A stretch of DNA of 10,224 nt, from IMG/VR virus record IMGVR_UViG_2526164649_000017; one strand, 5' to 3'. The notes beneath the pieces were generated by a model. That model saw nothing but the letters and a program-made list of their open reading frames with translations. It did not search any database and was not told the origin of the DNA. A program made the translations under genes and the position numbers. Below, piece by piece: positions 3,298-5,660 of the stretch; the first letter of the stretch is position 1; each line of letters begins with the position of its first letter. This stretch comes from a virus. Its lineage: Duplodnaviria; Heunggongvirae; Uroviricota; Caudoviricetes.

Positions 3298-3302
3298 CAA
3301 GG

Positions 3303-3330
3303 TTGATTTTTCCGGAATCTGTGGTAAATT
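3303..3330 (+). promoter_or_regulatory. pR'-like late promoter candidate
   Basis: TTGATT (3303-3308), 16-bp spacer, TAAATT (3325-3330) preceded by TGG (extended -10-like), 6 bp after the Q-like stop. Confidence 0.4.
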
Positions 3331-3377
3331 CGTCATAATGATGGGCGTTTTATGCCTGACGTTAGAAGAGTTTCTAC

Positions 3378-3401
3378 AACCCGCCGCTGAGCGGGTTTTT
3401 T
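3378..3401 (+). terminator. tR'-like intrinsic terminator
   Basis: Stem AACCCGC (3378-3384) / GCGGGTT (3391-3397), 6-nt loop, then a T-run to 3401; about 50-60 nt downstream of the candidate promoter. Confidence 0.6.
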
Positions 3402-3440
3402 ATTGCGAAATTAATTACGGACCGTTATTATTCTGCTCCC

Positions 3441-3516
3441 GGCCCTTTAGCTCAGTGGTGAGAGCGAGCGACTCATAATCGCCAGGTCGCTGGTTCAAAT
3501 CCAGCAAGGGCCACCA
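3441..3516 (+). tRNA. ileZ: tRNA with CAU anticodon, Ile2 (lysidine) type, ileX/ileZ-like
   Basis: 76 nt: acceptor stem GGCCCTT/AAGGGCC, anticodon loop ACTCATAATC, T-loop GGTTCAAATCC, encoded CCA. Closely resembles E. coli ileX from memory. Confidence 0.85.
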
Positions 3517-3617
3517 TCACAAACCGCCATTAGCTTATCAGGAAGAGCAGACGACACGATAACAGGGTTGTTGGTGCGGGGGGCGGGTCCCCGATGGCGG
3601 TCCATTATCGGTATTCA

Positions 3618-3694
3618 GCGTTGTTAGCTCAGCCGGACAGAGCAATTGCCTTCTAAGCAATCGGTCACTGGTTCGAATCCAGTACAGCGCGCCA
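3618..3694 (+). tRNA. argN: tRNA-Arg (anticodon UCU)
   Basis: 77 nt: acceptor stem GCGTTGT/ACAGCGC (one G-U pair), anticodon arm ATTGC-CTTCTAA-GCAAT, T-loop GGTTCGAATCC, encoded CCA. Same tRNA pairing as in lambdoid/Stx phages. Confidence 0.9.
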
Positions 3695-3804
3695 TATTCA
3701 TTCTTCCAGATTCCTTCCGGCAGAGCCTTATACTGAAATATACCTGGCTCAGGATATTGTTGAAAATATTATATATTTGTCAAAAATAAAAGTTCTGTTA
3801 AGTA

Positions 3805-4158
3805 TTGATTGAGTATTTGTTATACGGTCTAATGGTTTTTTCAGCATTAAGTATTTATCATTCATATGGTGTGGGTAGAGTGAATATTGATGAGGCGTCG
3901 GGGTGTTTCATCCTTAGGCAGCGTATTGATATAGTCAATGCAGCACGAGCAAAGGCCTTCAGCCGTTTGACAGTTTTGTTCTGTACTCCTGATCGTCTTT
4001 CGGGAAGAGACGTTATTATTCTGAATAGTGATGCTATACAGAGGGTTTGCGATGAGTTCATGGTTGCTAATTCAGAATTATTTGCTCTTGTTCAGGAGTA
4101 CAACAGAATAGCCAGGACCTGTGGTATGGATGAACTTCGGATTACTCATCTGGGGTAG
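3805..4158 (+). CDS. Hypothetical protein (117 aa as tracked; start uncertain)
   Basis: ORF track starts at TTG 3805; first ATG is 3832 and an in-frame GTG near 3877 is another candidate. No clear SD and no recognised family; ends about 390 bp before a + strand terminator. Confidence 0.3.
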   Translation: MIEYLLYGLMVFSALSIYHSYGVGRVNIDEASGCFILRQRIDIVNAARAKAFSRLTVLFCTPDRLSGRDVIILNSDAIQRVCDEFMVANSELFALVQEYNRIARTCGMDELRITHLG

Positions 4159-4549
4159 ATACATATCTGGATTATCACCTGTTACGGTAAAAAGTGATTG
4201 CTTACTGTTTTTGTGAATGGCATTGCAGCAGCCGGATAATGTCAGTGCCGGCTGACGGTGTGCTGGTGGCGGGTGTGGTGGTTGTTGCTTTCCCGTTGCT
4301 GAAAAAGAAAACGCCAGACTGTTAGCCGGGTATCAGTTAGCGGGAGAAATTTTTAAATACTTCACAATTCAGGCGGTTGACTGTTGTCTGGTTTGCGGGG
4401 AGTTTGTTAAAAGAAACTGGCATGGTGAATCCCCCTGTGCGGAGGGGCAATCAGCGAGTAGGTATATGGGATAATCGCGGATTCAGGTGCTGGTACTGAA
4501 TTCACCGGGAGGCACCCGGCACCATGCAATGGCACATAGCGCCACTCTC

Positions 4550-4582
4550 CAGCCCCTCTCCGGAGGGGCTGTTTATATTGAT
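4550..4582 (+). terminator. Intrinsic terminator (perfect 22-bp palindrome plus T-run)
   Basis: CAGCCCCTCTCCGGAGGGGCTG (4550-4571) is a perfect palindrome followed by TTTATATTGATTTTG. Confidence 0.5.
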
Positions 4583-4605
4583 TTTGTCAGATGTGAGTAA
4601 ACTCC

Positions 4606-4941
4606 TTATGGACTTTGTTGTTTTAGTCCATAAGGACATATTTGCAGAGTGCAACGGTTATTAAAGCATTCATTCAATACGTTATCTGTATTTGTAGGGC
4701 ATTCCTGGCTGTTTTTGATTAAATTCCAGAATGTTTTATTGAATGGTACTACGTTGTAAATGGTTACAGGTAGCACTTTGTTATTGAGCATGATGCCTGT
4801 GTGAGTCAGTGTAAATATACTTTCAGGAGGTAAGAAAGCATCCGATTGATACCAGATTATTAATTTTATTTTACTCCATATGACTGAAAAAGATATTCCG
4901 CATGATGGCTGGATAACTGTATCAATCACAATCCACTTCAT
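4606..4941 (-). CDS. Hypothetical protein (111 aa) in AT-rich island
   Basis: Minus-strand ORF with AAGGAA SD-like sequence 6 nt before the ATG (4939-4941) and a TATACT -10-like hexamer about 40 nt upstream. Opposite orientation to the late operon; no family recognised. Confidence 0.4.
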
Positions 4942-5200
4942 TTAGTTTCCTTGTTTATGCCTTGCTGGTGATGTTCTGAAAAGTATAAATGATATTTTTG
5001 AATTAAACCATAGAGCAGAATTATTTTTCTGATGTTGTTTATTGTTTATTTAAATGCAGGGTGGTTTATATCTCGTCTTGTAGTTTATCCATGCATATCT
5101 GCTTGATAATCAGGTTTTTATTTAAGGTATGGTTTTGTGTTTTTTCTGTATTACATGTCAGGTATTTTAAAGAATTATTTTTCAGATGGTGGAAAGAACC

Positions 5201-5389
5201 ATGGCATTTAAACACTATGATGTTGTCAGGGCGGCGCCGCCGTCAGATCTTGCGGAAAAGCTGACACATAAACTGAAAGAGGGCTGGCAGCCGTTTGGTA
5301 GTCCGGTGGCCATAACCCCTTATACCCTGATGCAGGCGATTGCAGCAGAAGGTGATGTGGTGGTCAGTGGTGCAACTGAGCCGGAGTGA
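5201..5389 (+). CDS. Small prophage protein (62 aa), unidentified
   Basis: ORF track starts at ATG 5186, but ATG 5201 has a better SD (GGTGGAAAG). Position just upstream of the holin is typical for small conserved lysis-region ORFs; identity not established. Confidence 0.5.
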   Translation: MAFKHYDVVRAAPPSDLAEKLTHKLKEGWQPFGSPVAITPYTLMQAIAAEGDVVVSGATEPE

Positions 5390-5632
5390 TACTACGTCAT
5401 CGTACTGGCCCGGCATTCCAGGCCATAAAAGACAGTCTGGCAGTGGGACTAAATGCACTGACGCTGACGGATATTACCAAAAATGCAACGTATGGCGTTG
5501 AGATAGAAAGTCTGGTGCTGGAGATAAATGCACCGGCATCATCATAAAAAGTGAGCCAGTCAAATGGAAGGTATCGTTAAACTCACCGGTAGTGTCAGTG
5601 GGTCGTCTGAGACGCTTGCATGAGTTATCAGA

Positions 5633-5660
5633 GCCATCAGTAGTTAACTGGTGGCTTTTT
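5633..5660 (+). terminator. Candidate intrinsic terminator upstream of holin
   Basis: Stem GCCATCAG (5633-5640) / CTGGTGGC (5648-5655) with one G-U pair, 7-nt loop, then TTTTTATTGTTG. Confidence 0.4.

Follow-up and report, generated by a model that had tools for sequence, protein, structure and literature searches.

Composition of the Q-to-holin accessory segment of a lambdoid prophage: iraL, an STnc100-family sRNA and a small conserved gene at the stx position

What does a lambdoid late region carry when its gene order is that of the Stx-converting phages and its toxin genes are missing? The question is raised by the window, a stretch of 10,224 nucleotides recorded as a virus of the class Caudoviricetes (IMG/VR record IMGVR_UViG_2526164649_000017), in which Q, a pR'-like promoter, a terminator, tRNA(CAU), tRNA-Arg (UCU), cargo and a holin gene follow one another. 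The original prediction, whose listed features all proved to be present at or near the expected positions, had read the roughly 2 kb between the tRNAs and the holin gene as one slot of unfamiliar small genes, transcribed under Q antitermination on induction and a candidate for a moron or a defence or anti-defence function. Our analysis leads to another reading, to which we give a probability of about 0.88: the interval is a late accessory ("moron") segment from a lambdoid prophage that is of the potB-island type of CFT073 and by now defective in lysis at least, and it is a mosaic of pieces with separate expression rather than a single Q-driven cargo. The cargo interval is mostly a known locus, with iraL as its main payload. 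The features are as follows.

2476-3297, plus strand: late antiterminator Q of the quuQ type, 273 aa, whose middle domain is a zinc finger (183 bits to Pfam Antiterm, PF03589; phrog_127)
3303-3404, plus strand: putative pR'-like promoter and short leader with a tR'-like terminator at its end
3303-3330, plus strand: the pR'-like promoter itself, TTGATT at 3303-3308, 16-nt spacer, TGgTAAATT at 3322-3330 (read from the sequence)
3378-3397, plus strand: stem of the tR'-like intrinsic terminator, followed by a T run (terminator scan)
3403-3431, plus strand: sigma-70-like promoter, TTGCGA, 17-nt spacer, TATTAT (promoter scan, 9/12 matches)
3441-3516, plus strand: tRNA with anticodon CAU, ileZ type (ARAGORN; Rfam tRNA, 72.5 bits)
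3517-3617, plus strand: degenerate pseudo-tRNA at the argN position (alignment to CFT073)
3618-3694, plus strand: tRNA-Arg (UCU), argO type (ARAGORN; Rfam)
3703-4361, plus strand: true stx-equivalent cargo slot (blastn against the Stx2a phage Stx2_EH1910)
3805-4158, plus strand: 117-aa ORF from TTG 3805 (ORF list)
3880-4158, plus strand: ORF92, 92 aa from GTG (dN/dS, homologue alignment, phrog_2873)
4194-4325, plus strand: DUF3927 small hydrophobic protein, 43 aa (Pfam PF13064, 90.7 bits against a gathering score of 25)
4391-4580, plus strand: STnc100-family sRNA with intrinsic terminator (Rfam RF02076)
4550-4571, plus strand: terminator-like hairpin of the STnc100 sRNA (terminator scan)
4606-4941, minus strand: iraL, RssB anti-adaptor, 111 aa (identity to the CFT073 protein; NCBIfam)
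4942-5185, minus strand: upstream region of iraL with 5' UTR, promoter and regulatory DNA of low GC (5' RACE sequence match)
5186-5547, plus strand: nanS-p deletion derivative (DUF1737 Pfam; phrog_143; alignment to E2348/69 NanS-p)
5186-5389, plus strand: N-terminal nanS-p piece, DUF1737, 67 aa, reduced to 62 aa if the second ATG is the start (PF08410, 62 bits, above the Pfam cutoff)
5386-5547, plus strand: C-terminal nanS-p piece (ORF53), in a frame that differs from that of the N-terminal piece
5630-5658, plus strand: terminator-like hairpin and T run just 5' of the holin gene (12 pairs, 5 of them G-C)
5696-5875, plus strand: class II holin S (P21 type), truncated (Pfam PF04971, 82 bits)

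Q, the pR'-like promoter and the tR'-like terminator would together provide a lambda-style late control. The Q region shares about 90% DNA identity with that of the Stx2a phage Stx2_EH1910. The promoter, which resembles lambda pR', is plausible as read by eye; with 8 of 12 matches it fell under the threshold of the promoter scan and was left unflagged. The 69-nt leader RNA from 3337 gave a fold z of -2.2, and the Rfam search of the leader returned sub-threshold hits only, to isrK (E = 1.8) and Trp_leader (E = 0.014). StxS, which is processed to a 74-nt sRNA from a 258-nt pR'-tR' leader (PMC7547250), was considered as a homologue and ruled out by length (about 65-70 nt here against 258 nt), a judgement made from the published description of StxS. 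The early region of the prophage lies beyond the ends of the window.

The sigma-70-like promoter at 3403-3431 sits 10 nt 5' of the first tRNA and is kept in CFT073 despite an IS200C insertion just 5' of it there; it would serve the tRNAs. ARAGORN assigns the CAU tRNA to Met and RefSeq calls the aligned CFT073 tRNA Ile. The tRNA is of the ileZ type, specific for Ile after lysidine modification. The CAU (Ile) and UCU (Arg) tRNAs, which this promoter directly precedes, decode AUA and AGA/AGG. Codons AUA and AGA/AGG are common in the cargo. Between the two tRNAs, the segment 3517-3617 matches a CFT073 tRNA-Arg at both ends and has its anticodon arm replaced, and neither ARAGORN nor Rfam, even at E <= 5, called a tRNA there.

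The limits of the cargo slot follow from the comparison with Stx2_EH1910 (LC567834). By blastn, window positions 3401-3702 and 4362-5420 correspond to positions 3131-3430 and 4799-5837 of the Stx2_EH1910 sequence compared, with stx2A and stx2B lying between. The stx2AB segment, 3431-4798 in that numbering, is without counterpart in the window, where ORF92 and the DUF3927 gene occupy 3703-4361 instead. The idea of an Stx-phage-type late module without its toxin was thus borne out, with the gene order of an Stx-converting late module present and stxA and stxB absent. The extent proposed for the slot did not hold, since the stx-equivalent part measures only about 0.66 kb; the remainder of the approximately 2 kb is backbone that is also found 3' of stx2B in the Stx2 phage. 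The window and Stx2_EH1910 share the Q type, pR'/tR' and the tRNA cluster, and downstream the STnc100 region, a minus-strand iraM-like gene and nanS-p. They differ in that Stx2_EH1910 has a methylase inserted 3' of tR', stx2AB at window position 3703-4361 and a full-length nanS-p, and the segment from STnc100 to the iraM-like gene is only about 71% identical between the two.

The slot encodes a 92-aa protein, predicted to be a helical hairpin, and the 43-aa DUF3927 protein. Both genes run in the late direction and would be transcribed by Q-modified polymerase, to which read-through from the tRNA promoter possibly adds. The 28-aa ORF noted earlier lies inside the DUF3927 gene, whose orthologue RefSeq annotates as WP_000562553.1. 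The 43-aa protein belongs to phrog_1470, labelled 'TciB-like'; a literature search for TciA/TciB returned Trypanosoma cruzi genotype papers only, and we treat the PHROG label as an unverified annotation. The 659-bp slot module occurs at a coverage of at least 80% in 1,183 of 5,426 E. coli genomes (about 22%); it is found in phage mEp460 and missing from phage vB_EcoS-640R1.

The low GC content that had been ascribed to the whole interval is seen at 3600-4050 (0.37-0.38) and 4650-5250 (0.32-0.35), but not at 4200-4650 (0.46-0.50). The two plus-strand terminators proposed there coincide with the terminator-like hairpins at 4550-4571 and 5630-5658, and the region 3200-5950 holds eight terminator-like sites as compared with 2.3 +/- 1.5 in shuffles.

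The first of these hairpins is part of the STnc100-family sRNA, which matches RF02076 over the full model (positions 1-206) at 132.4 bits, where the gathering score is 47; the fold z of the region is -2.96. The first 13 nt of EPEC PasD2 (GCATGGTGAATCC), with the PasD2 coordinates taken from table S6 of PMC8550237, are found at 4420-4432, and the 5' end of the sRNA is likely near 4420. The RNA would then probably begin there and stop at its own terminator. Its position 3' of DUF3927 and 5' of nanS-p is the same as that of STnc100/PasD (RF02076; PMC8550237; bioRxiv 10.64898/2026.05.13.724894), whereas the seed UGUGAG proposed for PasD is absent from the window sRNA as read from its sequence.

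The minus-strand gene at 4606-4941 is iraL. All 111 residues of its product are identical to IraL of CFT073 (WP_000871291.1), a characterised RssB anti-adaptor that binds RssB and stabilises the stress sigma factor RpoS and whose gene is reported to be more frequent among uropathogenic E. coli and in Shigella (PMC4045071). IraL is 58.9% identical to IraM (PMC4045071), and the Mg-starvation-induced IraM of E. coli K-12 belongs to the same protein family: the NCBIfam IraM model NF007393 matches residues 1-110 with 162 bits, the cutoff being 121, and the IraM structure PDB 8twd was aligned to IraL residues 1-78. Binding of RssB and stabilisation of RpoS would accordingly be expected of the window protein by its identity with the CFT073 one. 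In CFT073, iraL has its own sigma-70 start site, mapped by 5' RACE (PMC4045071). The 5' RACE sequence ACATCACCAGCAAGGCATAAACAAGGAAACCA lines up with 4974-4943 of the minus strand in all but one of its nucleotides (31/32 nt), which places the transcription start of iraL at 4974 on the minus strand. One base of the TTTACA -35-like hexamer found in CFT073 and 042 is missing in the window, a variant that is also present in MS6198 and ECMA0423, and the expression of iraL may differ from that in CFT073 as a result. The expectation that the cargo is transcribed under Q antitermination thus fails for iraL, which lies on the opposite strand and would be independent of Q because it has its own sigma-70 promoter. 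Among the pieces of the segment, iraL alone has been shown to affect the host, namely in CFT073.

Downstream of the iraL control region lies what is left of nanS-p. In alignment with the E2348/69 enzyme (616 aa), residues 6-67 of the 67-aa ORF correspond to NanS-p 1-62 and residues 8-52 of ORF53 to NanS-p 572-616; both pieces match phrog_143, at opposite ends. As compared with NanS-p proteins, which are 9-O-acetyl sialate esterases with SASA and DUF1737 domains, the window keeps DUF1737, the last ~45 residues and the usual position ahead of the holin gene, whereas it has lost residues ~63-571, and with them the esterase domain, and the two ends do not share a reading frame. A Pfam search of the pieces found no SASA esterase domain, and RefSeq treats the first piece as a pseudogene. 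With the esterase domain lost, the remnant would therefore have no esterase activity. The CFT073 prophage likewise has a nanS-p deletion. For the DNA between the remnant and the holin gene, Rfam gave no match to PasC, AgvB or AsxR at E <= 5; blastn showed no similarity to E2348/69 PasA, a resemblance noticed by eye failed alignment, and all four sRNAs were rejected for this stretch.

The holin gene that closes the layout is present, as predicted, and is truncated. From its true start, ATG 5696, the PF04971 match covers profile positions 1-54 of 64, short of full length, and where the holin of CFT073, intact at 71 aa, has its last 17 aa, the window protein has 5 aa read from an insertion-sequence end. 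The homology to CFT073 stops at 5865, and the holin/insertion-sequence junction is matched exactly only by a chromosome that bears the label E. coli ECMA0423. From its ORF pattern, we take the element that cuts the holin to be IS600-type, of the IS3 family; a putative IS2 is likewise named from its ORF pattern. Several insertion sequences lie close by. Since the holin is cut by an insertion sequence, the lysis cassette is therefore at least disrupted.

From the tRNAs through the holin gene, the window is about 98% identical in DNA to the prophage in the potB island of uropathogenic E. coli CFT073 (Hryckowian et al. 2014, PMC4045071). The gene order is shared: hokD, DUF968, RusA, Q and the tRNAs, then a gap without annotation, DUF3927, minus-strand iraL, a DUF1737 pseudogene and a holin gene. 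Of the two, CFT073 has IS200C inserted 3' of tR', a third tRNA (argN) that is intact, and a holin and lysis cassette that are intact too; in the window argN is degenerate, the iraL -35-like hexamer is one base short and the holin is cut by an insertion sequence. The interval is present at a coverage of at least 80% in 753 of 5,426 complete E. coli genomes, and comparison with relatives shows it to be mosaic and polymorphic.

The unannotated gap holds the 117-aa ORF. The earlier view that no product in the interval resembles a known family had to be given up for IraL (111 aa), DUF1737/nanS-p (62 aa), DUF3927 (28 aa) and the STnc100 terminator, all of them known; it stands for the 117-aa ORF, the sole uncharacterised one remaining. 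Is it a gene at all? PGAP annotates nothing at the counterpart of 3703-4193 in CFT073, 042, MS6198 or the sampled matches, ORF92 being unannotated in every RefSeq record examined, and this stretch is rich in A and T and has promoter-like sites on either strand. The start is not ATG and the Shine-Dalgarno sequence is weak in the window (GGGTAG). One could then take 3703-4193 for non-coding spacer or regulatory DNA and explain the missing annotation in this way. We consider this improbable, as the in-frame dN/dS of ORF92 is 0.21-0.31 with a third-position excess in four evaluable divergent pairs (dS was saturated in two further pairs), against 0.80-1.84 in the shifted frames. The frame also stays open in homologues of 91-106 aa at only 21-40% amino-acid identity, relatives have a canonical AGGAG or GGGAG ahead of the start (AGGAGT in one), the protein is a member of phrog_2873 (E = 2e-69) and its AlphaFold prediction is confident (pLDDT 89). 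ORF92 is a genuine protein-coding gene under purifying selection. Its real start is probably GTG 3880 and the 117-aa version from TTG 3805 an over-extension, for the 25-codon N-terminal extension has a dN/dS of 0.69 with no third-position excess, and distant homologues with lengths of 91-95 aa align with the longer ORF over its residues 26-117. The predicted fold of ORF92 is a two-helix hairpin. Pfam gave no significant match and a PDB profile search nothing at E < 0.5; fold searches of PDB and viral libraries reached E = 0.085 at best and returned generic antiparallel helical hairpins only, such as prefoldin, HR1 and BAR, and were set aside as uninformative. The family is tiny, with 21 representatives among 1.84 billion and no relative detected outside it. 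All relatives with context examined lie between Q and holin, three of them directly 3' of an AraC-type regulator. Tentatively, ORF92 may be a new factor, expressed late, for host modulation, superinfection exclusion or anti-defence, or it may partner the prophage AraC regulators.

The reading of the interval as Q-dependent cargo of unknown small genes, induced and likely a defence or anti-defence moron, retains some ground: ORF92 and DUF3927 have no assigned function, point in the late direction exactly where the related phage has stx2AB, and belong to a module that is variably present among related phages. It nevertheless seems to us rather unlikely, as IraL, STnc100 and the nanS-p remnant account for most of the 2 kb, iraL runs on the other strand from its own promoter and, with a truncated holin, the late operon is dead at least at its lysis end. 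Nor did the defence function find a counterpart in PADLOC, in which ORF92, DUF3927 and IraL matched no model and the DUF1737 piece gave only noise against AbiEii (E = 0.01). Decay could also be pressed further, to a whole segment, iraL included, that is an inert prophage remnant with no present function. The IS-truncated holin, the gutted nanS-p, the degenerate argN, the insertion sequences nearby and the one-base deletion in the iraL -35-like hexamer all fit such a remnant. However, iraL has an intact coding sequence that does not differ from the functional allele of CFT073, whose prophage shares the nanS-p deletion, the promoter variant occurs in at least two other strains, and STnc100, both tRNAs, ORF92 and DUF3927 are all intact; we regard complete inertness as a poor explanation. 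The mosaic of separately expressed pieces around iraL remains the preferred reading.

The iraL gene in the window is a further copy of a known locus and not a new system; as a gene of lysogenic conversion, it would increase RpoS while the cells are growing. The insertion point of stx in this backbone is narrowed to the 0.66-kb slot, and the run of STnc100, iraL-like gene and nanS-p is shared backbone that also lies 3' of stx2B in an Stx2a phage. Within the slot, a small, widespread and conserved gene has been overlooked by the standard annotation pipeline, and it offers a cheap target for functional study.

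The first part of the window belongs to a lambdoid prophage, of which it is the right end. The original prediction described a late region laid out as in Stx phages (3298-5650), and this description is correct; all of the ORFs that it listed exist, and terminator-like hairpins are enriched (8 versus 2.3 +/- 1.5 in shuffles). The low GC content that it reported holds for 3600-4050 and 4650-5250 and fails for 4200-4650. The features read along the region are as follows.

72-227: hokD
1043-2092: DUF968/YdfU gene
2105-2461: rusA
2476-3297: Q antiterminator, 273 aa (Pfam Antiterm, 183 bits)
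3303-3308: TTGATT of a pR'-like promoter downstream of Q, followed by a 16-nt spacer and TGgTAAATT (read from the sequence)
3378-3397: intrinsic terminator (tR') after the pR'-like promoter, plus T run
3441-3516: tRNA(CAU) (ARAGORN and Rfam)
3618-3694: tRNA-Arg(UCU) (ARAGORN and Rfam)
4391-4580: STnc100 sRNA, full-length match (Rfam, 132 bits; gathering score 47)

Rem-like and adjoining small ORFs lie 5' of the DUF968 gene (445-1041), an arrangement that we liken to the K-12 Qin prophage. No Sok RNA was found with the hokD toxin gene (72-227) at the Rfam gathering score. The pR'-like promoter scores 8/12, under the threshold of the promoter scan, and is therefore plausible, not demonstrated; if active, it would allow Q-dependent read-through into the rightward genes. 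A sigma-70-like promoter (3403-3431; TTGCGA, 17-nt spacer, TATTAT) stands immediately 3' of tR' and 10 nt 5' of tRNA-Ile, and is kept in uropathogenic E. coli CFT073 despite an IS200C inserted just 5' of it there. This promoter would drive the tRNAs and, because no terminator lies in between, possibly ORF92 and DUF3927 by read-through, all of which could then be expressed in the lysogen. RefSeq gives the CFT073 tRNA aligned to tRNA(CAU) as Ile. Both ends of the inter-tRNA spacer (3517-3617) align to the CFT073 tRNA-Arg at the argN position, the middle one of the cluster, with the anticodon arm replaced; the spacer looks like a pseudo-tRNA, since neither ARAGORN nor Rfam makes a call there.

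An stx-type cargo slot of about 2 kb had been proposed, and the structural idea survived whereas the size did not. The late region (L006) of Stx2_EH1910, an Stx2a phage that shares this Q type, is collinear with the window on both sides of stx2AB.

Window segments aligned to L006
Window 1807-3401, L006 6-1599, ~90% identity: Q region and leader
Window 3401-3702, L006 3131-3430, ~88% identity: tRNAs
Window 4362-5420, L006 4799-5837, ~71% identity: STnc100 region, iraM-like gene (minus strand), start of nanS-p

Both stx2A and stx2B lie within L006 3431-4798, in the place of window 3703-4361. The slot is therefore 0.66 kb, not 2 kb, and the remainder is, as judged by this alignment, backbone common to Stx2 phages. 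At a coverage of at least 80%, 1,183 of the 5,426 E. coli genomes have the 659-bp slot module; phage mEp460 has it too. Phage vB_EcoS-640R1 is without the module, including ORF92, though both flanks are common with the window. The suggested comparison of relatives thus revealed presence/absence polymorphism.

The main claim, that the cargo was unknown, did not stand, as iraL is characterised and STnc100, DUF3927 and the nanS-p remnant are known families. The interval is the iraL locus, already known from a type of prophage that is widespread. At least 80% of 3298-5880 is present in 753 of 5,426 complete E. coli genomes (megablast), the best matches having 99.5% identity. The orthologues in 042, MS6198 and CFT073 share the gene order Q, tRNAs, an unannotated gap, DUF3927, anti-adapter IraM (opposite strand), a DUF1737 pseudogene, a small hypothetical protein and a class II holin. 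In CFT073 the locus resides in the prophage adjoining potC, the "potB genomic island", and its tRNA-to-holin stretch is ~98% identical to that of the window.

The 111-aa minus-strand ORF (4606-4941) is, by its sequence, IraL. It is identical to CFT073 IraL at 111/111 residues, so that the main element of the "unknown cargo" is a characterised protein; it scores 162 bits against the NCBIfam IraM model (cutoff 121), and residues 1-78 align to the crystallised K-12 IraM (PDB 8twd). CFT073 iraL was formerly named ycgW and is more frequent in uropathogenic E. coli and Shigella; the identical protein binds RssB, with RpoS protected from ClpXP (Hryckowian et al., PMC4045071). Q-dependent expression had been predicted for the cargo. 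Being oriented away from pR', iraL is therefore no Q-dependent late gene, and in CFT073 it has a dedicated sigma-70 promoter and a 5' end located by RACE (PMC4045071). Of the 32 reported 5' bases, 31 are found on the window minus strand, placing the start at 4974. In the TTTACA -35-like hexamer (4995-5000, minus strand) the window is without one base as compared with CFT073 and 042, and MS6198 and ECMA0423 have the same loss. This variant may alter iraL expression among strains. The hexamer of phage 640R1 is TTTATA.

The STnc100 match ends in the terminator at 4550-4571. The initial 13 nt of PasD2, an EPEC sRNA whose ends were mapped in PMC8550237, match 4420-4432, which suggests an RNA of ~160 nt with its 5' end at 4420; PasD was related to STnc100 by a 2026 preprint. 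The putative RNA has a fold z of -2.96. In Stx2 phages an STnc100 copy is reported 75 nt 3' of stx2B (PMC12370729). Antisense to the STnc100 RNA of the window, 4407-4535 (minus strand) is a partial "hypothetical protein" pseudogene in the RefSeq records of CFT073, 042 and MS6198, most likely a mis-annotated sRNA locus. Phage vB_EcoS-640R1 has two STnc100-type regions apparently in tandem (3406-3757 and 4010 onward), whose identities to the window copy are 77% and 98%. The 28-aa hydrophobic ORF belongs to a 43-aa DUF3927 protein (90.7 bits). Our sequence evidence covers the IraL identity, the conserved mapped 5' end and the STnc100, DUF3927 and DUF1737 memberships.

The 67/62-aa ORF matches residues 1-62 of the 616-aa NanS-p esterase of E2348/69, and an overlapping 53-aa ORF in a separate frame matches residues 572-616; the catalytic domain, on this alignment, is therefore deleted. 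The two ORFs have GTGA at 5386-5389 in common, which serves as stop and start. Each short form has its own PHROG family (phrog_2036 and phrog_12088), so many phages have this deletion derivative, which may be kept as a DUF1737-only protein. The holin starts at 5696 and has lost its final 17 aa. CFT073 homology stops within it at 5865, where an IS3-family element starts that we take to be IS600-type from its ORF pattern. Esterase and lysis functions would both be lost. Two inverted copies of the element (5866-7126 and 7724-8955, 99-100% complementary) enclose a 597-nt gap with an MFS-transporter fragment (ORF 7208-7723, minus strand), an arrangement resembling a composite transposon. Abutting the right copy is another insertion sequence (8978-10224), presumably IS2-like by ORF pattern, which continues past the window edge.

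The slot also holds the predicted 117-aa ORF from TTG 3805, at which no orthologue examined has a RefSeq annotation. Codon analysis of four divergent loci gave four evaluable pairs, with dS saturated in two others. The in-frame dN/dS was 0.21-0.31 with a clear third-position excess, as compared with 0.80-1.84 in shifted frames and 0.69, without positional bias, in the 25-codon N-terminal extension. The motif preceding the corresponding start is AGGAG or GGGAG in relatives and GGGTAG in the window. We conclude from these sequence comparisons that ORF92 (3880-4158, plus strand) is a real gene of 92 aa under purifying selection; its start is assigned to GTG 3880 because the extension lacks the selection signal and relatives carry AGGAG/GGGAG there. 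ORF92 matches PHROG 2873 (E = 2e-69). A word-indexed search returned near-identical copies and 56-77% relatives only, and 21 proteins emerged when 1.84 billion representatives were searched with a full HMMER profile, among them relatives of 91-95 aa (32-63% identity) aligning to residues 26-117 of the 117-aa ORF. From 10 aligned sequences AlphaFold2 predicts a hairpin of two helices (residues 3-33 and 50-81, pLDDT 89); conservation is strongest in the motif FSRLTVLFCTPDR, which extends from the end of helix 1 into the loop that joins the helices. No clue to function came from Pfam, NCBIfam, PADLOC, fold searches or a PDB profile search, none of which gave a significant match.

All relatives with readable context lie 3' of Q in late orientation, with a holin following where the contig is long enough. 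A relative directly follows an AraC-type (HTH_18) regulator in three contexts, and this arrangement is seen at L010/L011 5142-7038 and at L007 and L013 (STEC1585). At L010/L011 a TerB-like gene and DUF3927 come next. This AraC-linked variant occurs in 79 E. coli genomes, and the sampled matches are without RefSeq annotation of the homologue. Eight of the 92 ORF92 codons are AUA, AGA or AGG, decoded by the adjoining tRNAs. What remains from the cargo claim is one small conserved gene, ORF92, in the stx slot, unannotated in the RefSeq records examined.
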